The notes below the pieces were generated by a model. The model made no database searches, was not told where the DNA came from, and was given only the letters and a program-made list of their open reading frames with translations. DNA of 64,000 bases from an uncultured Pseudobdellovibrionaceae bacterium. GTDB lineage: Bacteria > Bdellovibrionota > Bdellovibrionia > Bdellovibrionales > JAGQZY01. The stretch covers positions 216,269 through 280,268 of the forward strand of contig CAYGNH010000002.1 in assembly GCA_964351315.1 (NCBI GenBank). The letters are read 5' to 3'. Both the position numbers and the translations under genes were made by a program. This document shows positions 3,278 to 48,382 of this stretch, piece after piece (the first letter of the stretch is position 1; every line of letters begins with the position of its first letter).

Positions 3278-3826
3278 TTAAAGGTTGAGGTTGAGGCGGG
3301 CTTGGCGGATTGAGGCCAGAAGGTCCTCGGCAAATTGCAAATCGTCGACGCTTCCCACTGGGGCCTCCACGGCTTTTTTTGCCACTGCTTGTGGCTTGTC
3401 TTTGACCTGTTGGCGCAGCTTCTTCAAAGCCGATTGGGCGCCCTCGATCGAAAACCGATCATCATAAAGAAGTTTCTTAATCATTAAGGCCATTTCCACA
3501 TCTTTTTTGGTGTACATGCGTTGACCATTTTTAGATTTCTTGGGTTTTAATAAATCAAATTCCGTTTCCCAGTAGCGAAGAACATACTGCTTCACTCCGA
3601 CATAATCGGCGGCTTCTCCGATTTTGAAACCAAACTTATCCGGAATATTTTCGATTTTAGTTTGCAGTTTGTGAGTGGGAGAGATCCATTCAATTTCGGT
3701 ATTAATCGGTTCGCTTTTGACTTCTCGTTGGCTTTCGTTATCGATCGCTTGCTCCACTGTCATTAAAGATTGGAATTTTGGATGACTTTGCTCCAGCAAA
3801 GTTTTCCACTCATTCATCGTCACCAC
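3278..3826 (-). CDS. MerR-family transcriptional regulator
   Basis: The HTH region FKIGEAADYVGVKQYVLRYWETEFDLLKPKKSKNGQRMYTKKDVE is a typical MerR N-terminal domain. The gene overlaps the ihfA stop. Confidence 0.8.
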   Translation of the reverse strand: MVTMNEWKTLLEQSHPKFQSLMTVEQAIDNESQREVKSEPINTEIEWISPTHKLQTKIENIPDKFGFKIGEAADYVGVKQYVLRYWETEFDLLKPKKSKNGQRMYTKKDVEMALMIKKLLYDDRFSIEGAQSALKKLRQQVKDKPQAVAKKAVEAPVGSVDDLQFAEDLLASIRQARLNLNL

Positions 3827-4142
3827 CCGGCGCTTCTTGGCCGTTAAGCATGGCTTTTAAAACCTGACTGGGACTGAAGTTAAGGACGCGACGGGCACTG
3901 ATCGTGATGCGATCACCGGTCTGCGGGTTGCGTCCAATGCGCGATTTTTTTTCGCGCACTTCAAACTTTCCGAAGCCAGAGATTTTCACTTTCTCTCCGG
4001 CAACAAGTTTGTCTTTCAAGGCACCAAAAACCATTTCAACCAGTTCTGATGCTTCCTTCTTTGAAAAGCCAATCTTCTCGTAGACTCTTTCGACGATGTC
4101 GGCTTTTGTCATTGTTGATTTGGAAATATTCTTTCCTGCCAT
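3810..4142 (-). CDS. ihfA: Integration host factor subunit alpha (HU/IHF family)
   Basis: ...GFGKFEVREKKSRIGRNPQTGDRITISARRVLNFSPS... fits the IHF/HU fold. GGGAGG lies 7 nt before the ATG. The position after pheT matches ihfA. Confidence 0.85.
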   Translation of the reverse strand: MAGKNISKSTMTKADIVERVYEKIGFSKKEASELVEMVFGALKDKLVAGEKVKISGFGKFEVREKKSRIGRNPQTGDRITISARRVLNFSPSQVLKAMLNGQEAPGGDDE

Positions 4143-4206: not shown

Positions 4207-6639
4207 TTATCGAATTTCCAGACCCAGCTTTTGACAGAGGGAGTTAACCACATTGTCGCGGATTCCGTTGATCTCATCGTCCTTCAAAGTCTCTTTGTCG
4301 CTTTGGAAGCGCAAACGAAAGGCAATGGACTTTCGGCCAGCGGCTTGCAAGTCTTTGTCTTGGTAAATATCAAAAACCTCAAAATGGCTCAGTAGAGGTC
4401 CAGCCGCTTTTTTGATTTCTGTGCCTATTTTATCAGCAGTTAGAGTTTCGTCAGCTAAAAAGGCGATATCTCTCTCCACGCCCGGAAACTTCGGCAAACT
4501 TTTGAATTTTGGATCGCGCGGCTGACGAGTCATCAAAGCATCAAAATTAAACTCGGCCCAAGCCACTTGAGTTCTAATTTTATTTTCATCTTTTAATAAC
4601 GGATGAAGGCTGCCCAGCAAACCAATGACTTTTCCTTCATAGAACAAACAGGCTGTTTGCGAAGGATGAAAACCATCGGGACACTCATCCATGTCCACGC
4701 TGTCCCAGCGCCAGTTGCGACCACCAAGGCTGCGCAATAGAGCTTCAACGGTGCTTTTTAACTCGTAGACAACTTCGTTTTTTTGCGGCTGGTCCCACAA
4801 CCCATCAGGCTGCCCCCAAAACACAAAGGCCAAGCGGCCTTCTTCTATAAAAGAATCACCCTGCTTATGGTGAGAAGGCGCCACTTCAAAAAGTCGTCCC
4901 TGATGATTTCCGTGGTGATCATTGTGCACAAGGTTTTTAAAAAGAGACGGCAACAAACTTTCACGCATCACTGACAGCTCTTCGCTAATCGGGTTCAACA
5001 AAGCGATAGGTGCTGCGCTCCGCTTTAAGCCCCACTTGTCATTGGGTTCTCCCCAAATTTTTTGATTTTGGTCTTTACCAATAAAAGCGTAGTTTAAAGT
5101 TTGATCCAACCCCAGGCCCGTCAATACAGCCGACACCTTGTTGGTGAACTGATAAGAAAAACCATGGGCCGTGGGCTCACTGTCTAAGGTGGGAAGCTTT
5201 TCTTCAATTTGGTCGTAGCCGTTCAAACGCGCATACTCTTCCACTAAGTCTTCTTTAATATGCAAATCCCAACGATAAGAAGGGGGCGACACTCGAAAGC
5301 CTTGTTCTTTTTTTGCCACCACACAATTCAAACGACTCATCCAGTTTTCAAAATCACCGTCGTCAACGGTGTACCCCACTCGTTCACTGACGTAGTCGGT
5401 TGTGACGAAAATGTCATGGCTTGGTACCGGGTGGGGGTAAATGTCGACATGCCCTTTTTGAATGTCACCACCGGCGACTTCCTGAATCAATGCCGCAGCA
5501 CGGTTCATGGCATTCAGAGTCTGCTCTGGGTCTACGCCTCGAGAAAAGCGATAACAAGCATCGGTTTCAATGCCGTGAGCGCGAGAGCTTCGACGTACCC
5601 CTTCGGCCACAAAAAAAGCGGCCTCCAAAAAAATATCTTTGGTGGACTCGGAAACACCGGTGTTTTTACCACCGACAACGCCCGCGATCCCCACCGATTT
5701 TTGACCATCTTTGATCATAAGATCCTGATCACTCATTTTAATTTCAGTGCCATCCAGACTGGTGAAGACTTCACCATCTTGGGCTTTCTCAATTCGAATG
5801 GTGGATTTTTCTAAATTATCAAAATCGTAGGCATGCAAAGGTTGACCGTACTCGAACAAAACATAGTTGGTAACATCCACTACATTGTTAACCGAATTCA
5901 CACCAATGGACGTTAAGGCCTTTTGCAACCAAGAGGGACTCGGACCCACTTGGACTCCAGAAATCATGCGGCCGCAAAAGCGAGGACAGGCCTCGTCATC
6001 TTTTAAGTCGACATGGATCCAATCATTAACCGACTTCCCTGTTTCCGAGATATTGACCTCTGGAAAATTCACCGGACGATCAAGGAGAGTCGACAACTCT
6101 CTGGCCAAGCCAAGGTGACTCAAACAGTCGGCCCGGTTGGGAGTGACATTGAGCTCAAACAGGATGTCAGCTTGTTTATAGGCTTCTGCAAATTTTTGTC
6201 CCAGTTTATAATCTCCAGAAAAAACCAAGATCCCTTGGCTTTCCTCACTAAGCCCCAATTCTGATTCACTACAAAGCATCCCGAATGACTCGACACCACG
6301 AATTTTGGATTTTTTAATTTTAAAATCGCCAGGCAAAACCGTCCCGACGGTGGCCACAGCCACATGATCTCCGGTTTTATGATTTTTGGCGCCACAAACA
6401 ATCTGCAAAGGCTCGTTGCCCCCGACATCGACCTGGCAAAGAGTCAGCTTATCGGCGTCTGGGTGTTTTCCAACCTCAAGAAGTTGACCGACAACCACAC
6501 CCTCCCAATTTTCGGCTGGGTTGATAAGATCTTCCACTTCAAGTCCGGCCTTGGTTAAAAGACTAGCTAAATCCGGAAGCTTTGATTTGTAATCTGAAAG
6601 ATCGATATAATTGTTCAACCAATTGAATGAAATTTTCAT
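4207..6639 (-). CDS. pheT: Phenylalanine--tRNA ligase beta subunit
   Basis: 810 aa. It has the N-terminal tRNA-binding domain ([14 protein letters not shown]...), B3/4 and B5 regions and the C-terminal FDX-ACB-like end. ATGA overlap with pheS. Confidence 0.97.
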
Positions 6640-7661
6640 AATTCGAACTGCCTTAAAAACCGAGTGTCATTTTCTACAAACAAACGAATATCATTGATTC
6701 CATATTTAATAATGGCCATTCGTTCGATTCCAAAACCAAAGGCAAAGCCTTGCCACAGTTCCGGATCAATCCCCGCTTGCCGCAAAACATTGGGGTGCAC
6801 CAAACCGGACCCCCCAATTTCAATCCAACCACTTTGACTGCACATGCGACAACCTTGGCCTTTACAAAGGGGACAAGAGCAGTCCACTTCTGCCGACGGT
6901 TCGGTGAAGGGAAAAAAACTAGGGCGAAAGCGTGTTTTAATTTCGGGACCAAAAAATTCTTTAACAAAAAACGAGATCGTTCCTTTAAGGTCGGCCATAG
7001 AAACTTTTTTATCAACCAAAAGGGCTTCAATTTGATGAAAATTTGGCGAGTGGGAAGCGTCACTATCACAACGAAAAACACCACCGGGAGCCAAAACTCG
7101 AATCGGTGGTTTTTCATTTTCCATCGTATGGATTTGCACGGGGCTGGTGTGGGTCCGTAGAACGGCTCCGCCTTCGACGTAGAATGTATCCTGCATATCA
7201 CGGGCCGGATGGTTCTCGGGAATGTTGAGAGCTGTAAAATTGTAATGGTCGGTTTCAATCATAGGACCTGAACGAACCGAAAAACCGACGCGACTAAGGA
7301 TGTCCACGATTTCATTAATCACTCGGGGAATCGGATGCAGAGCCCCGTGGGTGACGGCTGGCCCCGGCAGGGACAGGTCTAAAACTTCATTTTTAAGCTT
7401 AGCGTTCAATTCTGCCTTTTTCAGCTTTGACTCATTGGCCTCATACAGGGCTTGCAGGGTCGAACGGACCTCATTGACCTTCTGCCCGAAAGCGGGACGA
7501 TCTTCTTTGGGAAGCGCTCCAACCTCCCGCATTAACAGGGATAAACTCCCCTGTTTACCAAAAAACTGCACCTTGACCTGATAGAGTCCATCACTGGTTT
7601 TGGCCTCGCCGATAGCTTTTTCAGCCTGCTCTTTGATCTTTTCCAACTTTTCTATTAGCAT
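6636..7661 (-). CDS. pheS: Phenylalanine--tRNA ligase alpha subunit
   Basis: Class II motifs are present (...[17 protein letters not shown]..., ...[13 protein letters not shown]...). The true start is ATG at 7661 ([17 protein letters not shown]...). The 496-aa track ORF carries a spurious 155-aa extension. Confidence 0.95.
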
Positions 7662-7700
7662 GCCGACATATTTCGCTATTTGATGAATATTTTCAACTGA

Positions 7701-8486
7701 TTGGTTAGTGGCGTGGCGCATAAAAATGCAAGCAATTGGAGCCCTTATAAGGGCGGAAAAAAGGGACCAAAAAAAGGAACCCACAAGAAACCCGTGCGAA
7801 TTTTTAAATTCAACGAGGCCGACGATCGCCTCCAGGATTTGTTTCACAACCACGGCTACGACGACAAAATTGATCACGCCACACGTAAACTTTTTACAAA
7901 GTTTTATGTGCTGCTTATGGAAAACCAAAAAAAACAAAACTTCACACGCCTCACCTCCATTAAAGACGTGGCAATTCGACACTTCATTGATTCCATCATC
8001 GTTAATAAACTCACGCCTCTGAAATTCCCTCTTCTCGACATGGGCACCGGGCCTGGATTTCCTGGCATCCCTTTGAAGATAATCTTGGGGTCCGAGAAAA
8101 AAATCATCCTGGCTGAAGGGGTGCAAAAAAGAGTGAACTTTCTCAAGAAAGTTCGAGAAGAGTTACAACTGGAAAACTTAGACATCATTGGCCGCAACGT
8201 GAATCAGGATTTCAATTACCCCGTCGAAGGGGTGATCACTCGCGCCGTTGAAGACACCAGCAACACGATGTCAAATGTCATAAACTGCCTGCAAACCGGT
8301 GGTTGCATTTACTTAATGAAGGGCCCTAATGTGGATCCCGAAATCAAGGCCGCCTTGGACACTTGGGGCGACTATTTTAAGTTAGAAAAAGACAAGTTCT
8401 ATAGTCTACCCAACACCACTCACGAGCGACGCCTTTTGGTTTTTCGCAAACTAAAAAACCTTGAGGGCGGCGATGCAAAAAATTGA
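7701..8486 (+). CDS. rsmG: 16S rRNA (guanine527-N7)-methyltransferase RsmG/GidB
   Basis: ...RHFIDSIIV...[15 protein letters not shown]... is a SAM-binding motif typical of RsmG. The start is uncertain (TTG at 7701, or GTG at 7713 or 7794). Confidence 0.8.
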
Positions 8487-9192
8487 CAGCGCAAAAAATT
8501 CTCTTTTTAAAAGCCTCTTGTCCCTGACGAAAAACAAAGGGATTAAAAAAGAAAAGCAAGCCTTGGTCAGTGGCGAAAAAATTACCAATGAAATGGCTAA
8601 ACTAAACATCCCTGCTTTTTGGATCGTGACTGACAAATTAAAGCAATCTATCCATGATAACCCACGGACCATATTGTTGCCCGAGTCTTTGTTCTCTCAG
8701 TTGGATGTGTGTGGAACCCACTCCCCCCTTCTTTGCGTGGAAACACCCGAGCTGCCGCCCCTAAAGAATAGAGACAGCAGCAAAGCCACCCTGTTTGCCG
8801 CCCTCAGTGATCCCACCAATTTGGGGGCTCTGATCCGAACTTGTGCCGCCTTTGGATGGCCGCAGATCGTTCTTCTCAAAGAGTCCGCCAACCCCTTTCT
8901 GCCAAAAGCCATTCGGGCCGCCAGCGGAACCTGCTTTGCCACCTCTCTTTTCACCGGCCCCAGCATTGAAGATTTAAATGATCCTGAGATTTTGGCTTTG
9001 GACATGAAGGGGCAGAAACTACAGCCAGGAATGATTAAAAGTAATTTAAAGCTTCTGGTCGGAGAAGAGGGAAGAGGGGTTCCCGACAGCTTTTCTGGGC
9101 AAAGAGTCTCTATCCCCATTTCAAACAAAGTCGAGTCCCTCAACGCTACAATCGCCACCAGCCTCTTGGTTTATGAGTGGAGCAAAACCTAA
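8473..9192 (+). CDS. TrmH/SpoU-family RNA 2'-O-methyltransferase
   Basis: SpoU motifs are present: ...NLGALIRTCAAFG..., ...LLVGEEGRGVP..., ...IPISNKVESLNATIATSLLVYE. ATG at 8473 overlaps the rsmG end. Confidence 0.8.
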   Translation: MQKIDSAKNSLFKSLLSLTKNKGIKKEKQALVSGEKITNEMAKLNIPAFWIVTDKLKQSIHDNPRTILLPESLFSQLDVCGTHSPLLCVETPELPPLKNRDSSKATLFAALSDPTNLGALIRTCAAFGWPQIVLLKESANPFLPKAIRAASGTCFATSLFTGPSIEDLNDPEILALDMKGQKLQPGMIKSNLKLLVGEEGRGVPDSFSGQRVSIPISNKVESLNATIATSLLVYEWSKT

Positions 9193-10424
9193 TGCTACAG
9201 CTGCAAAGTTTCCTGGGGATTTTCTTCTTCATCGGCATCGCTTGGCTATTTTCAAACAATAAAAAAAGAATCTCATGGCGTATCGTTGTTTCTGGAATCC
9301 TATTCCAATTGTTTTTAGCCTTAGCCGTCCTAGGCGTCCCGGCCTTTGGCCTATCTGGCCCCTTGCAAGGTTTTTTTCAAGGTGCCAATGATGTCATCCT
9401 AAAACTGCTTAGCTTTACCGAGGCTGGCAGTGGCTTTCTTTTGGGCGATCTGATTAAGCAAGAGAAAAGTGGATTTATTATCGCTTTTCAAATATTGCCT
9501 ATTATTATTTTTCTCTCTTCTCTTATGACCGTTCTCTATCATATCGGTATTATGCAATGGGTGGTGAACGCCTTTGCTTGGGTGATGCAGAAACTGCTCA
9601 ATCTGAGTGGGGCCGAATCTTTGGCTGCAGCCGCCAACGTCTTCGTAGGGCAAACCGAAGCTCCCTTGATCGTGAAACCCTATTTAAAAAATATGACCTC
9701 AAGCGAGCTGTTTTCATTGATGACGGGAGGCATGGCGACTATTGCCGGATCGGTGATGGCAGCCTATGTTGGCTTACTGAAAGACGCCATCCCAAACATT
9801 GGCGGACACCTTCTGACCGCCAGCATTCTTTCGGCTCCGGCCGCCCTGGTGATTGCCAAAATTATGGTCCCCGAAACCGAGACTCCAGAAACCTTAGGGT
9901 CGATTCCGAACGAGACGACCAAAGAGCACGTCAATGTGATTGAAGCTGCAGCCAGTGGGGCCAGCGACGGTTTAAAGTTGGCGGCCAACGTGGCCGCCAT
10001 GCTGTTGGCTTTTGTTGCTATCATCGCCATGCTCGACGCCCTCATCGACTTCACGACCCAGGGGCACCTTTCGCTGGCAATGATTCTTAGCTGGCTGTTT
10101 ACGCCCTTTGCCTTCTTCTTGGGAATTCCCTTTGAAGACCTCTCGGTGGCAGGGACTCTGATTGGTAAGAAAATTGTTTTCAACGAATTCATCGCTTATT
10201 TGGACTTGGCTAAGCTGACCGATATCAACCCACGCAGCCGAATTATTCTTTCTTATGCTCTTTGTGGTTTCGCGAACTTTTCATCGATCGCCATTCAAAT
10301 AGGTGGAATCGGCCCAATGATTCCCGAAAGAAAAAAAGAACTGGCCCAGTTTGGCATTCGATCCGTCATCGGCGGAAGTCTGGCCGCGTTTATTACGGCC
10401 TGCATGGCCAGTCTCTTGATTTGA
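9192..10424 (+). CDS. nupC: NupC/CNT-family concentrative nucleoside transporter
   Basis: Polytopic membrane protein with ...FVGQTEAPLIVKPYLKNMT..LFSLMTGGMATIAGSVMAAY... TAATG overlap with the upstream gene. Confidence 0.85.
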   Translation: MLQLQSFLGIFFFIGIAWLFSNNKKRISWRIVVSGILFQLFLALAVLGVPAFGLSGPLQGFFQGANDVILKLLSFTEAGSGFLLGDLIKQEKSGFIIAFQILPIIIFLSSLMTVLYHIGIMQWVVNAFAWVMQKLLNLSGAESLAAAANVFVGQTEAPLIVKPYLKNMTSSELFSLMTGGMATIAGSVMAAYVGLLKDAIPNIGGHLLTASILSAPAALVIAKIMVPETETPETLGSIPNETTKEHVNVIEAAASGASDGLKLAANVAAMLLAFVAIIAMLDALIDFTTQGHLSLAMILSWLFTPFAFFLGIPFEDLSVAGTLIGKKIVFNEFIAYLDLAKLTDINPRSRIILSYALCGFANFSSIAIQIGGIGPMIPERKKELAQFGIRSVIGGSLAAFITACMASLLI

Positions 10425-10450
10425 CAAGATTGAGCCTCTAATATCGGTGC

Positions 10451-12892
10451 ATGAGAAATGAACGCTTTTGGCTTCTTGGCACCCTATTCGCTTTGTCTGG
10501 ATTCACCAGCCTTGTTTATGAAAGCCTTTGGATTCGCAGCTTTTCAATAGCCTTTGGTAGTACGACTTTATCCATGAGCCTAGTGATTGCTATTTTCTTT
10601 TTTGGACTGGCCGCCGGAAGCCTTCTAGGCGCCCAATGGAATTCAAGAATTCTGCGCCCTCGATTGGTTTACGCAGGCCTGGAAGCTTTCATTGGTGTCT
10701 ATTGTTTCTTCCTGTACTACACCTTCTCGGAACTGCCAGCCGTCCTGTCTTTTTTTGCAACCCTGAACACAAGCCCGCCAACCGTCTTAATCCTAAAATT
10801 TTTCTCAACCTTAATACTAATCACTCCACCGACTGTGGCCATGGGCATGACATTTCCATTGATGGTTCGTCTGTTGTCGCCAGCAGACAGAAGCGTTGCC
10901 CAGAATGTTTCGCGCGTTTATGCTATCAACACATTGGGTGCCCTTTGCGGCGCTTTCCTTTCTGGGTTTGCCCTTATACCTTGGTTCGGACTCTGGGGAA
11001 CCCATTCATTGATGGTCATTCTCAACCTAAATATATTTCTCGTCTTAGTTCGCCGTCCGACCGAATCTCCGATCCAGAAAAAAAACCTCATTCCTCCAGG
11101 GAACGTCGATAAGTCTGCTGATTTATTTCGAACCTTAGTTCTATTCTCCAGCGCTGTCGTGGGTTTCGTCGCCGTCGGTGCAGAAATTGTATGGAACAAA
11201 TACATAACTCTCTTTCTTGGAACTAATATTTATGGTGTCAGCCTCACACTCTCTATTTTTCTTTTCGGAATCTTCTTAGGCTCATTTCTTTTATCTCGTC
11301 TGAAAACCAAACATCGATCTTCGCGTCTTTATATCGGACTCTACGCCCTATCCTTAATTACTACCCTGCTCAGTAGCCATCTTCTCGATCAAGCTCCCCT
11401 GCTTGCTTACCAATGGAAAGACTTTTTCCACTCAGGACTTTTGAGTTCGAAAACTCTGGTCGTGACGTTAATATTGCTGCCACCGACAGCCCTTTTCGGA
11501 GCTCTTTTGCCTCTGACTATTCATCTATTGTGCGCCAACAATACTGACTCCCCAAAATTCAGTGGCCGGGTGTATTCCATAAACACTTTGGGCGGGATTC
11601 TCGGATCTTTGACTGTGGGTCTTTTTCTTATTCCCCGCTTCGGCTCGGCGACCTCTTTGTTTTACCTCGGTTGTCTGCAACTGGGGACATTGTTTTTCTT
11701 GGTTCTATCTCTTGTCAAAGAGAACAAACTTTTTTTAATTGGCCCGTTTTGGTTGGCCGCAACAGGCTTAACATTGCTATTGTTGCCCTTAGTGCAATTA
11801 CAAACCATTGTTCAATCAGCCGAGTACTCCTACACCCATCCAAAAGCCACTGCTGATAGTTTTGCCTCATACATAGATCAATCCGATTTTGATATGCGCT
11901 ATTGGGCGGAAGGCGAAAATAGTGTGGTTAGTCTTCACTATGACATCAATGACAAGGGTGAGTTCGAAACCCAACGTTTGATTTTAAAAAGCAACGGCCT
12001 CAGCGAAAGCTTCTTTAACCTATCAGAGCCAGGGCAAGTCCCAAAATACGAAGGCTTGTTGGCCGTCGTTCCTTACCTTTACCACCCGGAACCTAAAACG
12101 GCCTTTGTCGTCGGCTATGGCGGAGGCTACACCGTCGAAGTTCTATCCAGCCTGGGGCTTGATAAAATCCGAGTGGCTGAAATCGAACAGAAAATTGTAG
12201 AGGCCTCGGATTATGTTTACCTGGGAGGATCTTCAATTTTGCAGAGAGGCAACATTGACCTCAAAATTCAAGATGCGCGCTTTCTACTTAGTCTTTCCAA
12301 TCAAGACCCTTACGACATCATTGTGTCTCAGCCTTCGCACAGTTGGATGAGTGGAGTCGCCAATCTTTTTACCCAAGATTTTTTTCAAATCGTCAAAGGA
12401 CGCTTAAGTAAAAAAGGTCTTTTTTCACAGTGGCTTAATTTGTACAATATGGATCCTCTTACTTTACAAAGTATTATTAGAACCTTTTTTGAAGTTTTCC
12501 CACACGGCGCTATTTTTACAAACAGTGCCGATGATCAGTTGATCTTACTGGGTGGTATTTCTCCTCTATCCTTGCAATACCAAAAGCTGAAGAAGATGAC
12601 AGCGGACATCTATTGGCAGGAGCGCCTCAGTTTCATCCCATTTAATTCCGACTTGGCTCTTCTATCTTACTTCGCAATGGATCGCCAGCAAGCCTTGGTT
12701 CTGAGTGAGAAGGCCCCTTTGAATACCGATAACAATGCTTTTGCCGAAGTCAGGCAAAGTCAACTTTACTACCAAATGGATTCCTCCTCTTGGACCTTCC
12801 GAAAATTTTTATTTGACCACTTTTCACCCTCGATCGGCGAAACAGAGAAACTCTTGCAGCAAGAAATTCAGAAAGCCAACAAAGGCCTTTAA
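10451..12892 (+). CDS. Fused polytopic membrane domain / spermidine-synthase-like (aminopropyltransferase fold) protein
   Basis: 813 aa. The N-terminal region of about 450 aa is multi-TM. The C-terminal region has ...AFVVGYGGGYTVEVL...DIIVSQPSHSWMSGVANLFTQDFF... Confidence 0.75.
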   Translation: MRNERFWLLGTLFALSGFTSLVYESLWIRSFSIAFGSTTLSMSLVIAIFFFGLAAGSLLGAQWNSRILRPRLVYAGLEAFIGVYCFFLYYTFSELPAVLSFFATLNTSPPTVLILKFFSTLILITPPTVAMGMTFPLMVRLLSPADRSVAQNVSRVYAINTLGALCGAFLSGFALIPWFGLWGTHSLMVILNLNIFLVLVRRPTESPIQKKNLIPPGNVDKSADLFRTLVLFSSAVVGFVAVGAEIVWNKYITLFLGTNIYGVSLTLSIFLFGIFLGSFLLSRLKTKHRSSRLYIGLYALSLITTLLSSHLLDQAPLLAYQWKDFFHSGLLSSKTLVVTLILLPPTALFGALLPLTIHLLCANNTDSPKFSGRVYSINTLGGILGSLTVGLFLIPRFGSATSLFYLGCLQLGTLFFLVLSLVKENKLFLIGPFWLAATGLTLLLLPLVQLQTIVQSAEYSYTHPKATADSFASYIDQSDFDMRYWAEGENSVVSLHYDINDKGEFETQRLILKSNGLSESFFNLSEPGQVPKYEGLLAVVPYLYHPEPKTAFVVGYGGGYTVEVLSSLGLDKIRVAEIEQKIVEASDYVYLGGSSILQRGNIDLKIQDARFLLSLSNQDPYDIIVSQPSHSWMSGVANLFTQDFFQIVKGRLSKKGLFSQWLNLYNMDPLTLQSIIRTFFEVFPHGAIFTNSADDQLILLGGISPLSLQYQKLKKMTADIYWQERLSFIPFNSDLALLSYFAMDRQQALVLSEKAPLNTDNNAFAEVRQSQLYYQMDSSSWTFRKFLFDHFSPSIGETEKLLQQEIQKANKGL

Positions 12893-13136
12893 GTTTTAAA
12901 TTGAAACAACATTTACGAAAATCGGCTGGACCTTTGGTGTGTTTTTTAACCAAAACTTAAAGTTTATCCTTCAGTCTCCGAGTAGAAAAATAACGATAAT
13001 AACCGCCATTTGGGGGGATAAGTAACGAGGTGACTATACGACATCTTAGTTCTTTCAGCACGTGGCACGTCGTGCGGTTTTATCGTTTTTTTTCCAATTG
13101 AACTTCGGCAAAAATCAAATCAAAAATCAAACTTTT

Positions 13137-14027
13137 TTAGGCTTTTGTTAGGTTGCTCTTGCTCCATTCCGAGTTCGGTGCTTGGTTCCATAAGCTTAAA
13201 ACAAAACCACCATCGCCACTGCCCGTGGGTTTACAAGCGATAGCTCCCTCGTTGCTAAGATGGGCCATATGGTCGTGCAGGTCCTGACTAATGAGGCCCC
13301 AGGATTCAAAACAGTCATTCGCTAAATTTATAGACTCTCTTAGTAATGAAACCTGCTCTTTGGTTTGCAAGGCTCGCTTGGCTAGGGTCACGGCTTTTTG
13401 CATGCGCTGATCAATGTCCGCACCAAGCTCTGGTTTTTCAGAAATCAATTTTTGAACTCGAGCGATGCAGTCAGAAGTGACTCCCCTTTTTCCACAATAG
13501 GACAAATAAAAATGCGGGCGCCAGGTTCCCTCGAAAAATTGCATGGTGTTAGGTTTCTGGAAACAGAGTCCTTGGTTATTCAAAGCGACAGCCACATCAA
13601 CACCGGAACTTTCCCCATGAAACAGATTTTCTAGGGATTTGGAAAATTCAAATTGATTGGCCTCATCCAAGTGCCCCAAAGCAGTGAACCACTTAGCTAA
13701 ACTCACACACAGGGTCGCACTGGCTCCCATACCGGCTCCCACTGGAATATTACTGCTGAGTCGCAAGACTCCCGAGACATCTTCTCGACGCAAATGAAGA
13801 TTTTGCAATGCCTTTTCCAAGACACCCCAAAAGGCCATTTCTAAATCTGTGTTTTTATGCTGAATCTCTAGTTTGAGCTCAGAACCAGGAACAAATTCAA
13901 AATCAAGAAAACGACTGGCGACGGGAAAGACCAAAGCCGTTCCTCCCCGCAGAACGCTGTGTTCACCGGCTAAAATCCACTTGCCATGGGTTCTAAACTT
14001 GAGCAAAACCAATCTCCTTAATATCAC
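13137..14027 (-). CDS. mvk: Mevalonate kinase (GHMP family)
   Basis: ...HGKWILAGEHSVLRGG... and the GHMP motif ...IPVGAGMGASATLCVS... The alternative TTG start at 14006 has better AAGGAG spacing. Confidence 0.8.
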   Translation of the reverse strand: MILRRLVLLKFRTHGKWILAGEHSVLRGGTALVFPVASRFLDFEFVPGSELKLEIQHKNTDLEMAFWGVLEKALQNLHLRREDVSGVLRLSSNIPVGAGMGASATLCVSLAKWFTALGHLDEANQFEFSKSLENLFHGESSGVDVAVALNNQGLCFQKPNTMQFFEGTWRPHFYLSYCGKRGVTSDCIARVQKLISEKPELGADIDQRMQKAVTLAKRALQTKEQVSLLRESINLANDCFESWGLISQDLHDHMAHLSNEGAIACKPTGSGDGGFVLSLWNQAPNSEWSKSNLTKA

Positions 14028-14964
14028 TCAAACAAGTCCATTGGTCTTTAAGGGCTTGATTATAAAAAAGCAGGCTTAAGTCTTTCTGATCTTTTCGCCA
14101 CAGCAAATGGATATTTGGGCCCGCATCCATCGTTACTAAAGGTCCATCGCCATGGGCCTCCCAGAAGTCGCGAGTCAGATTCAAAAGTGTTACAGTTCCC
14201 GGCAAAAAGTAACCAAAAGGAGGAGCACTGGTTTCAAATAAAGCGTGCATATCCCAAAACTCGGACCATAGAACTTGATAAAGCTGGGGCCAATTCAAAT
14301 TGAGAGTGGCTTTCTCCACTTTCCTCAAGCGCTCTACTGACCGCTCGACCCGCCCTAGAAACAAATCGCTGTTCGCCACCCGCCGATGGGCTTCTGACGA
14401 CGAAACCCTTTTGGCCCCTGCACCAACAAGAATCACCATGTGCTGAAGACTCATGTTGTCTGAAGGGTAACTTCGCACGCCTTTGTCATCCCAAATCACC
14501 AAGCCGTCCATGAAAGACCGACAAGAAGATCCTGAACCCTGTGCGGACAACTTAACTTTTTCCTCTAGGGAAATATTTTTCCCAGAAATTTCTGAGAAGG
14601 CTATACAACAAGCCTCCGTTAATGCGGCGAAACTGGAGGCGCTGCTTGCTATCCCGCAGTCGGCTGGAAAATTGTTCGCCGACTGAACTTTGAACCCACT
14701 GGTGACTGAAAAATAGTTTTTCAGGCGCCCTAAGTGCTTCAGATACTTCTGTTTACCCTTATCACTCATTGCGAAAGGATAGTCGCTGGGCAGAGGACTC
14801 CAAGAATCCACATCCGCCTCTGTTAAAACCACCTCTGTTTTCAAATGCCCCAACGTCCATGATAGAGAGGGGTTGGTCGGAATATTTTTTTCATAATCCT
14901 TTTTCCCCATATACTTTATCCAAGCAATGTTGGAAGGTTTTTCGGATTTCCATTGCTTAGGCAT
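13993..14964 (-). CDS. mvaD: Diphosphomevalonate decarboxylase
   Basis: ...SNIAWIKYMGKKD...PTNPSLSWTL... and ...NFPADCGIASSASSFAALT... are typical of MVD. The gene overlaps grxB by 8 nt. Confidence 0.85.
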   Translation of the reverse strand: MPKQWKSEKPSNIAWIKYMGKKDYEKNIPTNPSLSWTLGHLKTEVVLTEADVDSWSPLPSDYPFAMSDKGKQKYLKHLGRLKNYFSVTSGFKVQSANNFPADCGIASSASSFAALTEACCIAFSEISGKNISLEEKVKLSAQGSGSSCRSFMDGLVIWDDKGVRSYPSDNMSLQHMVILVGAGAKRVSSSEAHRRVANSDLFLGRVERSVERLRKVEKATLNLNWPQLYQVLWSEFWDMHALFETSAPPFGYFLPGTVTLLNLTRDFWEAHGDGPLVTMDAGPNIHLLWRKDQKDLSLLFYNQALKDQWTCLSDIKEIGFAQV

Positions 14965-15634
14965 TCAGAGTCTCTCCAAGGGCTAAATCCCAATGCAGGG
15001 GGACCTTCGACTTCTCACTCATTTCATTCATATAAGTTTCTATTTTTTCGGGAAAATTGAAACCTTTGACCGTGGTCAAACAACGTAGCGAGGCGAAAAC
15101 ATGAAAGTCATCAATACTCAGTCGATCACCCCAAAAAAATGGGTCTCCAACAATCAGTTTTTCTAACTCAGACAAATGGACACTTGCTTGATTTATTAAG
15201 TTTTTTGAATTTGACAAGCTTTTTGAAAAGGGCCCAATGGATCTTTCTTTTTTTATGGTGAAATACTGCCGGGCTGATGCGGTGGCAAACTCTGGGAGAT
15301 TCATGGCCACCCACCGAGGCATGGCCAAGGCATAGTGATATTTCCGAATATCCAGCAACCACTGGTTAAGGGTTCCGTCGCCTTTGGAGGCCCCAACCCT
15401 GGGTGGACCAAAAGACTCTAGGCTATCCACATAAGAAATGATTTCAAGGCTTTCAGGAAGATAAGCCCCTTCAAGCGTTTGCAAAATAGGCAACATTTTT
15501 TGGCCAATCATTGAAATCGGCGAGTCTTCATCATCATTCAACAAAACTTTTTCAGTCACAGGAACAGCCTTTAAACCAAAAATCATTCTAGCTTTCACGC
15601 AATAGGGGCAGTGATCGTAATGAAACAAGGTCAA
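14957..15634 (-). CDS. grxB: Glutaredoxin 2 (GST-like two-domain glutaredoxin)
   Basis: ...LFHYDHCPYCVKARMIFGLKAVPV..VLLNDDEDSPISMIGQKMLPILQ... aligns along its length with E. coli GrxB as I recall it. The likely start is TTG at 15634 (GGAGG-N5-TTG), forming a TTGA overlap with the upstream stop. Confidence 0.85.
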   Translation of the reverse strand: MTLFHYDHCPYCVKARMIFGLKAVPVTEKVLLNDDEDSPISMIGQKMLPILQTLEGAYLPESLEIISYVDSLESFGPPRVGASKGDGTLNQWLLDIRKYHYALAMPRWVAMNLPEFATASARQYFTIKKERSIGPFSKSLSNSKNLINQASVHLSELEKLIVGDPFFWGDRLSIDDFHVFASLRCLTTVKGFNFPEKIETYMNEMSEKSKVPLHWDLALGETLNA

Positions 15635-16530
15635 TTTGACCTCCGAACGGTGGCCCCCGCATGAGCTTCGCTTAAACAACTGATGTACTGAAAGTCCTCA
15701 GCAAAGCAAAGAGCTTTGATTTCTTCACTCCGAGAGGACTCACCAACGACAATGACAGTGTCCATGCCCATCGCTCCACATCCCTTTGCCGCCAATACAG
15801 CTTCGTGTTCACGAAGCTGATAGACGCTTTTCTTTACGGTTTGATCACTTAAGCCCAACTCGTTAAGAAGATCATAATAGTAGTTCAGAGATTCACAAAA
15901 AACTTTTAAATTCTGCTGATCCAAAGAGGTTCGAGCCGCCAACAGAATTGGAATAAGGTTTTTCAAGTTTTTTGATTTTAAATCTTTGAGATGTTCATGA
16001 GTGGCCAGTTTTTTCCCGGTATGAAAAATAAAAATATCATAGCCTGGGAAGGGCCATGCCAATTTCTCAGCCAAATAATTCATTCCATCGTACCAACAAA
16101 GGCCACCACAGACTTGCGCCACCAAGTCAGCGCCACTGGGTTTATAGTCTCCACCCGCATGAGCTTGATACTGGGGAACAAAATCAGCCAAGGTATTCAA
16201 TATTGGAATGGTGCGATCACCCGCCCCTTCGCTGACAAAAGAATCATAGAGATAAACCGCAAGATACTCGGCGGTGGAACGACCAAAACCGCCTCGCCCT
16301 TCATGGGGATCTAAAACAGAAAAACCCACATCCTTATGATGAAGTTTAGAGCGCAGACGTCCCGCCGGACTGTCTTCGTGGAAACCAAAGGTGTTGTCTT
16401 TAATAGATTTAATAAAAAAAGCGGGTTCTGTCGCTGCGATCAATGAGGCTGTTCCATTGATTGCCAAGTATTCACCAACGATAAAGGTCTTACTTGGAAT
16501 TTCAAAAACCAAATCCAGTTGATTAGACAT
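15631..16530 (-). CDS. Phosphomevalonate kinase (GHMP / ERG8 type)
   Basis: The N-terminal ...PSKTFIVGEYLAINGTASLIAATEP... pattern, a GHMP-like core and operon context support the call. TAATG overlap with mvaA. Confidence 0.72.
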   Translation of the reverse strand: MSNQLDLVFEIPSKTFIVGEYLAINGTASLIAATEPAFFIKSIKDNTFGFHEDSPAGRLRSKLHHKDVGFSVLDPHEGRGGFGRSTAEYLAVYLYDSFVSEGAGDRTIPILNTLADFVPQYQAHAGGDYKPSGADLVAQVCGGLCWYDGMNYLAEKLAWPFPGYDIFIFHTGKKLATHEHLKDLKSKNLKNLIPILLAARTSLDQQNLKVFCESLNYYYDLLNELGLSDQTVKKSVYQLREHEAVLAAKGCGAMGMDTVIVVGESSRSEEIKALCFAEDFQYISCLSEAHAGATVRRSN

Positions 16531-17831
16531 TAACGAGCGCTATTCTCCGGCGCCGCCATTTGCTTTCGAAGACCTTGCAGGATCTGCCATGCATCCGTGT
16601 GAGTGATTCGTTTTTTCACCGCTAACAGTTGCTCCAATTTTCTTTGCAAGGGTCTAGTTTCATCAGGAGTGGCTCCCACTCCCAATGTCAGATTTTTAAT
16701 ATGAAGTTTCATATGCCCTTCGATGATACCAACCGTGGTCAGCGCATTTAAAGCTCCCAGGTTTTGCACCAAGCCGACAGCTCCACAAATTCGTGCCAGC
16801 TCGTTGGCACTGTGGACATCGAGCATTTCAAGACAGATGCGAGCTGTTGGGTGCAGCGATGTCACGCCTCCGACGGTCCCTACAATCAACGGCGCTTTAA
16901 ACATTCCAGTAAGAGTCCCATCCTGATAGCGCCACTGAGTGATCGAGCGGTACTGTCCGCTACGAGCCGCATAAGCGTGAACACCAGCTTCGACCGCACG
17001 CCAATCGTTACCGGTGGCGATCAAGATCGGATCAATTCCATTCAGAACACCCTTATTGTTGGTTGCCGCACGATAAGGATCATTCTCGGCAAAAAGAGAG
17101 GCCTCTTGAATTTTCTCACCCATTTCAGGACTCACGTTTCGCAGTTCAACGGTGGCGACAGTGAGTTTAGTATCAACCAGGTTCGAGAGAATGCACATGG
17201 TGACTTTCTCTCCGCTTAAATCTTGAATGGGGCCTTTCAAGTATTCACAGACTTGATTGATCATATTTGCACCCATAGCGTCGCAGGGATTGAACAGAAC
17301 ATGGAAGACCGCCATGGTGCCACCATCATTGCGATCAATCGATCGAAGCTGAATGTCTTCGACCCCTCCACCACGTTTGACCATAGTCGCGGCGACCTGT
17401 TCGTTAACCTCTTTAATCCACGTTGCCTTGGTTGCAGATAGCAGATTGTTTAGCTTTTCAAAGTTTGCCACTTTCGCGATTTGAATTTGGCCAATAATCG
17501 TGTCACCCATGGTGCGAGTTGTGATCGCTCCATCTTGCGCGACCCAACGAGCTGTTTTACTAGCGGCTGCAATAATAGAAGTCTCTTCCACCGCCATGGG
17601 TATCACCCGAGGGACATCGTCAATAACAAAATTGGTCGCCACTCCCAGAGGAAGCTGAAAGTAGCCAATGGAGTTCTCGATAAAGTTATCGGCCAGGTCG
17701 ATGTCATGGAGACCTCCGGAAGTCAGGTAATCGATGTCGGTTTTTGTTAAAGCGCCCATTTCCATCAATCTTTGAAATCTTTGGTGACGGTTCAATTTAG
17801 AAAAACCTTTAAACAATTCCTTTATGTCCAT
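16530..17831 (-). CDS. mvaA: Hydroxymethylglutaryl-CoA reductase, class II
   Basis: 433 aa with no membrane anchor. ...ENSIGYFQLPLGVATNFVIDD..., ...DAMGANMINQ..., ...GTVGG... are typical of class II HMGR. Confidence 0.9.
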   Translation of the reverse strand: MDIKELFKGFSKLNRHQRFQRLMEMGALTKTDIDYLTSGGLHDIDLADNFIENSIGYFQLPLGVATNFVIDDVPRVIPMAVEETSIIAAASKTARWVAQDGAITTRTMGDTIIGQIQIAKVANFEKLNNLLSATKATWIKEVNEQVAATMVKRGGGVEDIQLRSIDRNDGGTMAVFHVLFNPCDAMGANMINQVCEYLKGPIQDLSGEKVTMCILSNLVDTKLTVATVELRNVSPEMGEKIQEASLFAENDPYRAATNNKGVLNGIDPILIATGNDWRAVEAGVHAYAARSGQYRSITQWRYQDGTLTGMFKAPLIVGTVGGVTSLHPTARICLEMLDVHSANELARICGAVGLVQNLGALNALTTVGIIEGHMKLHIKNLTLGVGATPDETRPLQRKLEQLLAVKKRITHTDAWQILQGLRKQMAAPENSAR

Positions 17832-18871
17832 TTCAACAGCTTCCTTTTACCAACAAGAGATTCCACTTTATCAATTCCTAAACAAAACATAGCCACTTTT
17901 AATTCCTGATCCAACTGCTGCATGCGATCGATCAGTGTTTCCGGTCCGTCCACCGCGGCCTGCAAAATGGGTTTTGCAAATCCCACTTTTTCAGCTCCTA
18001 GAGCTAACAGCTTCGCCGCTTGCAGACCATCTCTGACGCCACCCGAGGCCCACAAAGGAAAACTTACCCCAGTTTTGAATCCATTTTCTAGAGAGTCAAC
18101 CGTGGAAATCCCCCAATCAAAAAATGTCCGAGCCACTCGGTGCCCAAACTCATTTTCATTCATACGAAAAGCTTCTACCCGACCCCAGTGGGTCCCACCC
18201 TGACCGCTGACATCAACAGCCGCCAGGTTCATTTCTTTCAATGAATCAAAGGACTGTTCCGAAAAACCGCAGCCTGTTTCCTTTAAAACCACAGGAACAG
18301 TCAAGTCTCCAATCAGTTGCTTCAGAGCCTCAAGCCCTCCCTTAAACTGTGGAGTTCCCTCGGGCTGAATCGCCTCCTGCAGCGGGTTGCAATGCACCAC
18401 CAAAAACTGGGCCTGTAAGGAGTCCACCAAAGCTTGAATATCGACGGTTGGTCGGCCAATAATTTGTGACAAGCCTATATTTCCAAAAATAATATTGTTT
18501 GGATATTGAGCGCGAAGCTTTTCGCACTCCAACCTTCCATTTGGATCAAACAACTGGCGCCGTTGCGACCCGACTCCCATCATCCAACCCAGCTCAGCAC
18601 AAGCCTTAAGAATGGTGTCATTCAGCGCTGTCGCTCCTTCATGACCCAAGGTCATTGAACTCACAAAAAGGGGTGACGCCAGGGCGTGGCCAAAAGCTTC
18701 ACAACCTAGGCTCACATCCTCAAGATTAATATTTGGAATGGGATTATGTTGAAACTGCAAACTAGAAAACTGGTCCAGCAAAGACTGGCTCTCATCGCGC
18801 AATGATATTTCGATGTGATCCTTCTTCCTCTGATTGAATAGTTCAGAGGAAGTCTGCTTTTCAGTTTCCAA
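17822..18871 (-). CDS. fni: Isopentenyl-diphosphate delta-isomerase, type 2 (FMN-dependent)
   Basis: ...RKKDHIEISL..., a TIM-barrel FMN pattern ...VVLKETGCGFS...DVSGQGGTHW..., and ...ASGGVRDG... TTG start. Confidence 0.85.
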   Translation of the reverse strand: METEKQTSSELFNQRKKDHIEISLRDESQSLLDQFSSLQFQHNPIPNINLEDVSLGCEAFGHALASPLFVSSMTLGHEGATALNDTILKACAELGWMMGVGSQRRQLFDPNGRLECEKLRAQYPNNIIFGNIGLSQIIGRPTVDIQALVDSLQAQFLVVHCNPLQEAIQPEGTPQFKGGLEALKQLIGDLTVPVVLKETGCGFSEQSFDSLKEMNLAAVDVSGQGGTHWGRVEAFRMNENEFGHRVARTFFDWGISTVDSLENGFKTGVSFPLWASGGVRDGLQAAKLLALGAEKVGFAKPILQAAVDGPETLIDRMQQLDQELKVAMFCLGIDKVESLVGKRKLLKWT

Positions 18872-18912
18872 TTCCTCTCCTCTGTAGAGAGACCTCTGCA
18901 GAAGGTTCGGCC

Positions 18913-19260
18913 TTACTTCGGCATCACCTGTTCGATAATTTTTGTAAACGCCTCGGGATCCGTCACTGCGATATCGGCAAGGACTTTCCGATCTAATTCA
19001 AGATCCGAATTAATCAAAGCACCCATGAATCTGGAGTAACTGGTTCCGTTCAATTTGGCCGCAGCAGAGATTCGAGTGATCCATAATTTACGGAACTCTC
19101 TTTTCTTAACTTTTCGATCCCGATAAGCATAGACCATTCCACGATCATTTTTTTCTTTAGCGACAGCATAGATCCGGCTACCAGCACCACGGTACCCTTC
19201 AGCACGGTTCAATACTTTATTACGACGTCGGCGAGCTTTAACTCCTCTTTTTACACGCAT
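18913..19260 (-). CDS. rplT: 50S ribosomal protein L20
   Basis: MRVKRGVKARRRRNKVLNRAEGYRGA... is a canonical L20 sequence. Confidence 0.97.
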   Translation of the reverse strand: MRVKRGVKARRRRNKVLNRAEGYRGAGSRIYAVAKEKNDRGMVYAYRDRKVKKREFRKLWITRISAAAKLNGTSYSRFMGALINSDLELDRKVLADIAVTDPEAFTKIIEQVMPK

Positions 19261-19273: not shown

Positions 19274-19465
19274 CTAAAGATTAAAACACTTTTGAATAAG
19301 TGGAAGGTTAGCGCTATCAACATACTTCATATCACCAAGGTGACGTTTTCTTTTTGAACTTTTGTTCACAAGTATGTGGCGGAGTCCCTGCTGGGATCTT
19401 TTGATTTTTGTTCGGCTTTTTACGCGAAAGCGTTTTTTAGCACCAGAATGAGTCTTCTGTTTCAT
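19274..19465 (-). CDS. rpmI: 50S ribosomal protein L35
   Basis: MKQKTHSGAKKRFRVK... is a canonical L35 sequence. Confidence 0.95.
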   Translation of the reverse strand: MKQKTHSGAKKRFRVKSRTKIKRSQQGLRHILVNKSSKRKRHLGDMKYVDSANLPLIQKCFNL

Positions 19466-19771
19466 CTGAATTTCCTTTCCCTAGAGGCGAAGGGGATACC
19501 ATTAAGCCCTTGCTTTCATTAGCCTTTAGAAGATGTAAAGGGTTTTAACGCATTCAGGCGCCTTTGTCCACTCAAAGAAACTCATTTATTTATTAAAGAT
19601 TCTAATAGTTTAGGCTACATGAGTCCTAGCCAAGGGGCCTAAAACGGCCAGAAGCACTGGCGCCCGTGGCGACTCACAGAAGTTGGCTCCACCCCAGCCA
19701 ATGAAAATGACGAGGGGTGCACGGGACAACCAGTTTATTTTTTAACGACAAAAAATAAAACTCGCTGGACC

Positions 19772-20383
19772 TTAGGAGCTAGCCGCTTGTTTTTCGCTCG
19801 ATGCTGCTTTGGCTTTAGCCGCTTTGTATTCTTTCACCTTGGTGGCGTCAGGAGCCATCACCACAAATAGGTGCCGTCCCTCCATCTTAGGTTCTACCTC
19901 GGGAATTGCCAAGTCAGTCAACTGGGCCATCACTCGTTGCAGAACTTCTCGCCCCACTTCTTTGTGAGCCATCTCGCGACCTTGATAACGAAGGTTCACT
20001 TTTACCTTGTCACCTTCAAGTAAGAACTCGCGCGCCTTTTTCATTTTAGTCTCTAAATCATGATCGTCGGTGCGTGGTCGAATTTGAATTTCTTTAACTT
20101 GAATAACAGTCTGCTTTTTCTTGGCTTCCTGGGCTTGTTTCTTTTTTTCGTATTTCCACTTCCCATAATCCATCATTTTACAAGTGGGAGGATTGGCGTT
20201 GGGGGCAATCTCAATCAAGTCGAGGCCCTTTTCCTCTGCCACTTGCAAAGCTTGTGATGGCGTCATCACACCCAGCATCTGCCCTTCATCATCGATCACT
20301 CGCACCTCTCGGGCTGTGATCCGGTCATTCACTCTATACTTTTCTTTCGGTGGGGCTTGTCGCCCGCCACGGTGTTTTCTAAT
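19772..20383 (-). CDS. infC: Translation initiation factor IF-3
   Basis: ...NDRITAREVRVIDDEGQMLGV... The frame stays open upstream of the track's GTG start, back to an ATT codon at 20383 preceded by AAGGAGG. This gives the N-terminus (M)IRKHRGGRQAPPKEKYRVNDRI... Confidence 0.93.
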   Translation of the reverse strand: MRKHRGGRQAPPKEKYRVNDRITAREVRVIDDEGQMLGVMTPSQALQVAEEKGLDLIEIAPNANPPTCKMMDYGKWKYEKKKQAQEAKKKQTVIQVKEIQIRPRTDDHDLETKMKKAREFLLEGDKVKVNLRYQGREMAHKEVGREVLQRVMAQLTDLAIPEVEPKMEGRHLFVVMAPDATKVKEYKAAKAKAASSEKQAASS

Positions 20384-22339: not shown

Positions 22340-22625
22340 CAAGGAATCAAAAGGTCATCGTATCTGTGTCGGTCGGATAAAGAATCATCTTTCTCTTTAT
22401 CTCTAAATTTGGCCTTGAAGGCAAGTCCAATTTCCCCCCAACTCAAAATTAGAGGCCTTTCAATGCTTAGATTAGCAAAATTCTCGTGCAAAACCCCCTT
22501 TACGCCCGATAGAACGGCTCTCAATGGGGGCACCGAAAAGACAACGGCCCCAGGTCAAGAGCTCCGATCTTTGGACTTCGCAGCTCTGAACGACTCACGC
22601 AATTCTACCCGGACGGATTTTGACC

Positions 22626-29300: not shown

Positions 29301-29476
29301 CTGGCCCCCATCAGTTTCATAAACTGGCGACGAGCCAATCCGCTTTTATCGTCCTCATCTTTCAAAGGTGAGGTTTGAAATTCTTTTTCCGCTTGCTCGA
29401 TAAACTCGGGTGTCTGGTATTTTTCGTCCAAGCTTTTCCAGTAAGAGTTTTGCTTTGTTTCTTGATGATTTTCCAT
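26378..29476 (-). CDS. actB: Alternative complex III subunit ActB (molybdopterin-oxidoreductase-like domain fused to a 4Fe-4S ferredoxin domain)
   Basis: Tat motif ...[18 protein letters not shown]. The C-terminal third holds several Cys clusters ([39 protein letters not shown]). The tail is His-rich. Confidence 0.9.
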
Positions 29477-46293: not shown

Positions 46294-46372
46294 AGATTAA
46301 AGTTTAGCAAAGACTAGGGGTAATTATTAGAAAAAAGTCTCTGGACTGTTGAATAGTTTTCCTTGGACCGCA

Positions 46373-48349: not shown

Positions 48350-48382
48350 TATGGTGCAATTAAACAGTTGAGGAGTGAGTTT

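Follow-up and report, generated by a model that had tools for sequence, protein, structure and literature searches.

In Escherichia coli K-12, the genes thrS-infC-rpmI-rplT-pheM-pheS-pheT-ihfA are contiguous, as the initial annotation of the DNA considered here had stated, and only 450 nt with the pheM attenuator separate rplT from pheS. A different layout has been described in Bdellovibrio bacteriovorus HD100. There, Bd1617-Bd1640 comprise a thrS-like gene, infC, rpmI, rplT, genes for an isopentenyl-diphosphate isomerase, a 3-hydroxy-3-methylglutaryl coenzyme A (HMG-CoA) reductase, a kinase, a decarboxylase and a further kinase, and then a SpoU methylase gene, gidB, pheS, pheT, ihfA and a regulator (Karunker et al. 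2013, Table S1, PMC3627812). The mevalonate pathway encoded in the middle is uncommon in bacteria (PMC4451040) and has been put forward in print as characteristic of predatory ones (PMC4646340, PMC4451040). The present analysis concerns this locus in a stretch of 64,000 nucleotides from an uncultured Pseudobdellovibrionaceae bacterium (contig CAYGNH010000002.1, positions 216,269 to 280,268), referred to as the window. Both halves of the E. coli cluster are found in the window with the same gene content, order and common strand, but rplT and pheS are 11.25 kb apart and a MerR-family gene follows ihfA. The gene order is that of HD100 and has thus been public since the first Bdellovibrio genome; HD100 differs in having no grxB within the operon, no nupC and no spermidine-synthase fusion gene, and in carrying a large insert between infC and rpmI. 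Judging from gene order and tree comparisons, the mevalonate operon of the Bdellovibrionales is old, vertically inherited and adjoined to rpmI-rplT.

The genes of the locus were checked by an open reading frame (ORF) listing and by NCBIfam and Pfam searches of the window proteins. These searches bore out all earlier gene names and their order, with qualifications for the two kinases and for mvaD.

20399-22342, minus strand: thrS, threonine-tRNA ligase (TIGR00418, 727.6 bits, above the cut-off)
19772-20332, minus strand: infC, initiation factor IF-3 (TIGR00168, 223 bits; ORF listed from GTG, a putative start)
19274-19465, minus strand: rpmI, ribosomal protein L35 (TIGR00001, 60.9 bits, above the cut-off)
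18913-19260, minus strand: rplT, ribosomal protein L20 (TIGR01032, 141 bits, above the cut-off)
17822-18871, minus strand: fni, type 2 isopentenyl-diphosphate isomerase (TIGR02151, 311.9 bits, above the 281.3 cut-off)
16530-17831, minus strand: mvaA, class II HMG-CoA reductase (TIGR00532, 315.7 bits, above the 259.95 cut-off)
15631-16530, minus strand: divergent GHMP kinase, putative phosphomevalonate kinase (pmk), named from its position and a profile match to phosphomevalonate and mevalonate kinase structures
14957-15634, minus strand: grxB, glutaredoxin 2 (NF007702, 238 bits, above the 133 cut-off)
13993-14964, minus strand: mvaD, mevalonate diphosphate decarboxylase family (TIGR01240, 146 bits, below the 171 cut-off)
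13137-14027, minus strand: mvk, putative mevalonate kinase (TIGR00549, 135 bits, below the 163 cut-off; GHMP_kinases_N); the gene caller places its start at 14006 (289 aa)
8461-9192, plus strand: SpoU/TrmH-family RNA 2'-O-methyltransferase (PF00588), found upstream of pheS throughout the order
7701-8486, plus strand, divergent from pheS: rsmG/gidB-like 16S rRNA methyltransferase (TIGR00138, 105 bits, above the 99.5 cut-off)
6636-7661, minus strand: pheS (TIGR00468, 335.6 bits)
4207-6639, minus strand: pheT (TIGR00472, 814.9 bits)
3810-4142, minus strand: ihfA (NF001401, 135.8 bits)
3278-3826, minus strand: MerR-family regulator, found downstream of ihfA throughout the order

The six genes from fni to mvk all overlap their neighbours, by 1-14 nt.

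The arrangement is not peculiar to this genome. Species-representative genomes were scanned with PheS, and the 20 proteins of the window were mapped onto 80 loci, which are given L numbers below. PheS matched Bdellovibrionales-type genomes only, with identities up to 92% in uncultured lineages and 63% in B. bacteriovorus, and the window proteins share 34-63% identity with their counterparts in B. bacteriovorus strains (L032, L035). Throughout the order, thrS-infC-rpmI-rplT is followed by fni-mvaA-pmk-mvaD-mvk and, after a stretch of variable length, by trmH and rsmG on the opposite strand next to pheS, pheT, ihfA and merR. Among the 32 loci that contain rplT, the next gene is fni in 31 and mvaA in one, so that the comparison of synteny around rplT and pheS proposed in the initial annotation found rplT always with one of these two genes. 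Of the 46 loci that extend 9 kb or more upstream of pheS, 34 have mevalonate genes there, and rsmG is divergent from pheS and adjoins it in 68 of 73 loci. Between rplT and pheS lie 5.7 kb to more than 9.8 kb, and at least 5.7 kb in all 30 relatives showing both genes. The full arrangement through pheS is also present in three loci on contigs found via GrxB and MvaD homologues (L084, L085, L088); L086 keeps the part from rplT through the mevalonate genes, and pheS is not within that locus.

The block of about 11 kb between rplT and pheS had been treated as one unit, and this was not borne out. The mvk-trmH interval is as short as 40 bp in L076 and elsewhere exceeds 7 kb, its gene content differs by lineage, and in at least one related genome parts of the block are more than 1 Mb apart. 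By these comparisons, the block is a composite of a conserved rplT-fni junction, a variable middle and a conserved trmH-rsmG-pheS junction.

The inheritance of the operon was followed by comparing a distance tree of concatenated Fni, MvaA, MvaD and Mvk with a tree of PheS and PheT for 30 taxa. The two trees have 21 of 27 splits in common, where label shuffling gives an expectation of 0.18, and the Mantel correlation between the two data sets (r 0.80) was reached in none of 2000 permutations. This congruence, one of the outcomes that the initial annotation itself had named as contradicting lateral acquisition, indicates that the operon has been vertically inherited since the common ancestor of the sampled Bdellovibrionales. 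The composition of the block is likewise ordinary. Its GC content (0.466), its GC content at third codon positions (GC3; 0.464) and its tetranucleotide z-scores (-1.2 to +1.7) are within the window background, and the pooled codon-usage distance of the mevalonate genes is about 2 standard deviations above that of ORF blocks of the same number. The search for direct or inverted repeats flanking the block gave only short chance matches; no tRNA gene is near it, and no integrase or transposase was found among the annotated ORFs of the window.

The region that joins the ribosomal protein genes to the mevalonate genes is short:

18872-18912, minus strand: rplT-fni junction of 41 nt, with a weak imperfect hairpin, no T run, the Shine-Dalgarno sequence GGAGAGG and then a TTG start codon

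The statement that this gap holds no terminator appears correct for the window, on scans that are crude. A comparison of 29 rplT-fni junctions, together with L085 and L086, revealed three kinds. In 13 of the 29, and likewise in L085 and L086, the gap is 3-30 nt, into which a terminator or promoter cannot fit. A second group, including the window and B. bacteriovorus, has gaps of 33-61 nt with or without a hairpin and no clear T run; the hairpin of the B. bacteriovorus strains compared (L032 and L035, HD100 not being one of them) is stable, unlike that of the window. In eight lineages (L014, L047, L051, L058, L059, L065, L068, L071), rplT is followed by a canonical terminator of a GC-rich hairpin and T run, with about 20-45 nt remaining before fni in most of them and more than 100 nt in L047.

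Published expression data from HD100 bear on the same junction. In the growth phase, values in reads per kilobase per million (RPKM) are 11494 for L35 and 12393 for L20, followed by 1181 for fni, 436 for mvaA, 57 for pmk, 95 for mvaD and 68 for mvk, whereas in the attack phase all the genes from rpmI through rplT to the mevalonate genes are at about 0-20 (Karunker et al. 2013, PMC3627812). Expression thus falls about 10-fold from rplT to fni. Bd1626 is induced at the shift to predatory growth (PMC2797640); a literature search on Bd1625-Bd1629 retrieved one remark on expression and nothing more. Transcriptional read-through from the ribosomal protein operon, as the initial annotation had suggested, is plausible given the window junction without a terminator, the gaps of 3-12 nt in relatives and the matching gradient in HD100. 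Co-transcription of rpmI-rplT-fni through mvk appears somewhat more probable than separate transcription on these grounds.

Several explanations of the locus have to be weighed. A recent lateral insertion of an 11-kb mevalonate island into the thrS...ihfA cluster of this particular genome would account for a layout that resembles the interruption of a cluster contiguous in E. coli, and would suit a pathway as uncommon in bacteria as this one. It is nevertheless highly improbable, since the arrangement is order-wide and the block is composite with a variable middle, the mevalonate tree follows the housekeeping tree, base composition is normal with codon usage at about 2 standard deviations, and repeats, tRNA genes and integrases are lacking around it. 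What stands of the proposed insertion is a plausible split of an ancestral cluster, the natural reading because gene order and strand in both halves are those of the widespread thrS...ihfA(-merR) cluster; the recent timescale does not stand. Lateral acquisition may instead have been ancient, dating to the origin of the Bdellovibrionales or earlier, with the genes belonging to an operon lineage shared with mevalonate genes of the Legionellales type. The MvaD of the window aligns with PDB entry 3lto over its full length at about 46% identity (E 6.6e-78), other solved decarboxylases match at 1e-32 or worse, and the identity to 3lto equals the divergence of MvaD within the order (44-50%). We take 3lto to be the Legionella pneumophila enzyme; if it is, a shared operon lineage of Legionellales and Bdellovibrionales and an old inter-phylum transfer, in one direction or the other, would be likely. 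The argument uses one gene and no taxon-labelled tree, from which the direction of transfer does not follow, and a search for Legionellales homologues of MvaD gave none named as such among the best 120 matches listed, all of them closer entries, Bdellovibrionales included. A literature search for a link between Bdellovibrio and Legionella mevalonate genes found nothing relevant. Such an early transfer is tentative and on the whole unlikely as the explanation, and it is compatible with the vertical descent favoured here, not exclusive of it.

The adjacency of rplT and the mevalonate genes could also be ancient but neutral, the operon being an independent transcription unit driven by a promoter in the junction or at the 3' end of rplT, and its position having no regulatory meaning. 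The strong intrinsic terminators in eight lineages fit this explanation and imply that co-transcription is not obligatory. The 10-fold drop from rplT to fni in HD100 fits it as well, and a separate growth-phase promoter of lower strength, within rplT or directly behind it, could also produce the HD100 gradient. A scan for consensus promoters on the coding strand from rpmI to fni detected none, but the scan is crude and insensitive and misses the proposed rpmI promoter too. The linkage is moreover dispensable, as deduced from two cases. In a 3.04-Mb genome (PheS 76% identical), mvaD is alone and 1.2 Mb from rsmG-SpoU-pheS (L087 10001-11011 with L089 10001-11026), and in L054 (1885-8344) rplT is followed by mvaA only, then by a FAD oxidoreductase gene and genes of no assigned function. 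The ancestral adjacency of rplT and pheS, for its part, is inferred from E. coli and general knowledge of Proteobacteria, the sampling here being of Bdellovibrionales only. All these points count against an operon that was ancestrally joined to, and transcribed with, rpmI-rplT. Against neutrality, rplT and the mevalonate genes have stayed together in 32 of 32 loci although the infC-rpmI and mvk-trmH spacers are insertion hot-spots; gaps of 3-12 nt are too short for a promoter, so that any fni promoter would fall within rplT, and the junctions with terminators leave only about 20-45 nt before fni. We consider neutral synteny improbable. The exceptions were also considered as a sign that the layout is not ancestral, namely L054, the genome with mvaD alone, and 12 loci without mevalonate genes within 10 kb of pheS. 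This was rejected because every locus that contains rplT keeps the junction, and because L004, one of the apparent negatives, has the operon at a greater distance on the same contig.

The best explanation is probably an ancestral, vertically inherited gene order of the Bdellovibrionales, in which a cluster was split early and the mevalonate genes became the tail of the rpmI-rplT operon. In an early member of the order, a cluster of the proteobacterial type, thrS-infC-rpmI-rplT-pheS-pheT-ihfA-merR, would have come apart between rplT and pheS. A five-gene operon fni-mvaA-pmk-mvaD-mvk would have been joined to the 3' end of rplT on one side, and on the other a divergent rsmG-trmH pair placed next to pheS, with the region between the two junctions receiving cargo. 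In the clade of the window, grxB would later have been inserted between pmk and mvaD with translational coupling.

The same operon may have a regulatory element at its upstream end, where three features were delimited:

19466-19771, minus strand: infC-rpmI spacer of 306 nt, which carries the candidate rpmI promoter and leader
19542-19570, minus strand: candidate sigma-70-like promoter, TGGACA (19570-19565), 17 nt and TAAAAC (19547-19542)
19481-19530, minus strand: candidate L20-type leader, GGC (19524-19522), AAG (19515-19513), a hairpin and CGCC (19489-19486), followed by the Shine-Dalgarno sequence and the rpmI ATG

The spacer measures from 150 nt to 2.2 kb in relatives and includes one or two genes in L084 (3653-6165) and L085 (447-6181); in HD100, 11.5 kb lie between infC and rpmI (Bd1619-1623, including an RTX exoprotein) (PMC3627812). 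Across the order, the spacer is by this comparison a hot-spot of insertion, and these insertions mean that the classic infC-rpmI-rplT operon is broken in this group too. An AT-rich hairpin is found directly after the infC stop codon, at about 19726-19770. The candidate promoter scores under the threshold of the consensus scan, and its identity is suggested by conservation. TGGACA is invariant in the window and four close relatives, and the -10 element is mostly kept as TAAAAC or TAAAAA, with TAAGTT in L086.

The leader consists of a pattern GGC-N4-7-AAG, a hairpin of 6-9 bp, CGCC and the Shine-Dalgarno sequence, and it was recognized in about 26-28 Bdellovibrionales lineages. In the window, the hairpin pairs AAGGG with CCCTT (19511-19507 with 19494-19490). 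The hairpin sequence is unrelated between lineages, and compensatory changes occur at all six predicted pairs. The same leader and promoter position was seen in L003, L012, L022, L026-L030, L038-L044, L047, L051, L058 and L059, and further loci are L065-L072, L076, L077 and L084-L086. Known L20 leaders comprise the Rfam L20_leader of Firmicutes, the L20 operator of E. coli and a candidate from Deltaproteobacteria (Eckert & Weinberg 2020), and their hallmarks are G-C pairs and an AA dimer with a helix in between (PMC7247131). The element upstream of rpmI shares the location and these hallmarks, is conserved with covariation, and is a candidate L20/L35 leader of the Bdellovibrionales. The feedback that L20 exerts on rpmI-rplT in E. 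coli (PMC7247131) is likely its analogue. It differs from the known leaders in matching no Rfam model at an E value of 1-10 or better, and its binding of L20 is putative. Rfam searches covering the full window, the rplT/rpmI region (E up to 10) and the loci of three relatives (E 1-10) retrieved a tRNA and nothing else; leaders of the L20, Thr or Phe type were matched in none of them, nor was pheM in the window.

Under the preferred explanation, the mevalonate genes would be the distal part of an operon rpmI-rplT-fni-...-mvk, which would start at the promoter and L20-type leader upstream of rpmI and provide their main route of transcription. The rplT-fni junction could then act as a lineage-specific throttle that lowers the expression of the enzymes relative to the ribosomal proteins. 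Its form would differ, from no terminator in the window to a hairpin in B. bacteriovorus and, in lineages resembling Pseudobdellovibrio, a complete intrinsic terminator. Such a coupling would tie the supply of isoprenoid precursors to the growth phase of the predator. An analogous case is the rpsU-dnaG-rpoD operon of E. coli, known as the macromolecular synthesis operon, where one transcript carries a highly expressed ribosomal protein gene, then a hairpin or partial terminator between cistrons, and then genes for low-abundance enzymes. The genes there are different, and co-transcription has been demonstrated in E. coli but is inferred here. A further-reaching model would have one mRNA run from an L20-sensing leader through rplT into the mevalonate genes, with free L20 and growth-phase ribosomal protein promoters setting the output of the pathway, the hairpin or terminator serving as an evolvable dial of the enzyme-to-ribosomal-protein ratio and GrxB being a functional partner of the pathway in the clade of the window. 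In this complete form the model is speculative and quite doubtful. If true, the synthesis of isoprenoid precursors would be wired into ribosome biogenesis in the Bdellovibrionales.

The glutaredoxin gene within the operon is well defined. GrxB is further supported by TIGR02182 (236 bits, above the 187 cut-off), PF04399 and an HCPYC motif in the translation, containing the CPYC site, and the gene call of the source contig gives a product of 225 aa. The TTG start of grxB overlaps the stop codon of pmk (TTGA), and its 3' end overlaps the start of mvaD by 8 nt. The gene occupies the same position between pmk and mvaD in L003, L082, L084, L085 and L086, and is absent from all more distant mevalonate operons among the mapped loci. 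The insertion is thus confined to the clade of the window, which indicates recruitment into the operon in one clade. A stand-alone grxB is located between topA and secF in the related 3.04-Mb genome (L083 8001-8657), with a product 58% identical to the GrxB of the window.

Among the mevalonate enzymes, MvaA matches the class II HMG-CoA reductases of the PDB (1qax and others) at 1e-85 to 1e-90. For the third kinase, the name phosphomevalonate kinase is backed by position, by GHMP motifs conserved in the protein and its 37 orthologues, and by a profile of these orthologues (alignment A1), which matches 3k17 (1.6e-9), mevalonate kinases and the phosphomevalonate kinase 1k47 (8e-4). It gains little from the family databases, as the single protein has no Pfam match and only a weak NCBIfam match, and a single-sequence search of the PDB was empty. 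Identity within the order is 27-36% for this protein versus 62-65% for MvaA, from which the third kinase of the operon is evolving very fast. The calls of mvk and mvaD stand at the level of their family domains, both being under the NCBIfam equivalog cut-offs. The product of 13993-14964 belongs to the decarboxylase family by its Pfam domains (MVD-like_N and MDD_C) and by its match to PDB 3lto at 6.6e-78, which apply equally to a mono- or a diphosphate substrate. The operon resembles the mevalonate operons of Gram-positive bacteria in its class II HMG-CoA reductase, type 2 isomerase and three GHMP-fold enzymes. Those operons are ordered mvk-mvaD-pmk, with fni, and have mvaS and mvaA separate, whereas the order here is fni-mvaA-pmk-mvaD-mvk. 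The operon of the window further differs in its divergent phosphomevalonate kinase without a Pfam match, in adjoining a ribosomal protein operon, and in that no HMG-CoA synthase was found among the ORFs tested. Within the window, neither an HMG-CoA synthase nor a thiolase was detected in the operon or in 10 further ORFs of suitable size.

The remaining features between mvk and trmH are as follows:

12893-13136: convergent intergenic region with a hairpin at 13058-13075
10451-12892, plus strand: fusion of a major facilitator superfamily (MFS) domain and spermidine synthase, 813 aa (NF037959, 110 bits, above the 40 cut-off)
9177-10424, plus strand: nupC, NupC-family nucleoside transporter (TIGR00804, 412 bits, below the 442 cut-off)

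The hairpin at 13058-13075 could be the end of both converging transcripts. In the fusion protein, a multi-pass, MFS-like membrane domain is joined to a spermidine-synthase-like domain. The gene occurs only in close relatives, and nupC is present in L001-L006, L008, L084 and L085; by this distribution, both genes are lineage-specific cargo. The rsmG ORF as listed has a TTG start 40 nt from pheS and an N-terminal, lysine-rich extension of about 60 aa, which the gene calls of relatives lack (148-184 aa in L084 and L085). Translation probably begins downstream of 7701, which would leave a divergent pheS-rsmG promoter region of about 270 nt (window 7662-7935).

Outside the cluster, the sole tRNA of the window is a tRNA-Pro (GGG) at 1361-1437 on the minus strand, and a tRNA is likewise located downstream of ihfA-merR in B. 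bacteriovorus L032. Upstream of thrS (22677-29476, minus strand), the window encodes a 419-aa membrane protein without a family match, a cytochrome c, an NrfD/DsrP-like protein and a 1032-aa ORF. The syntenic region in L088 (1-2076) contains an ActD domain, and together these genes suggest an alternative-complex-III-like cluster; a related genome of 2.17 Mb also has such genes upstream of thrS. A type II secretion cluster at 45352-55542 includes GspC (delta type), GspF, GspK and a GspN-like protein.

Possibly new are the grxB within the operon, the highly divergent putative phosphomevalonate kinase and the uncurated L20-type leader upstream of rpmI. Beyond these items and the result on operon order, the locus is ordinary, and genomes public from HD100 onwards already show its gene order. 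The operon is probably expressed by read-through and in the growth phase only. These results correct the idea of a recent island, and they offer a simple model of how an obligate predator may couple the supply of lipid carriers for its membrane and cell wall to growth.

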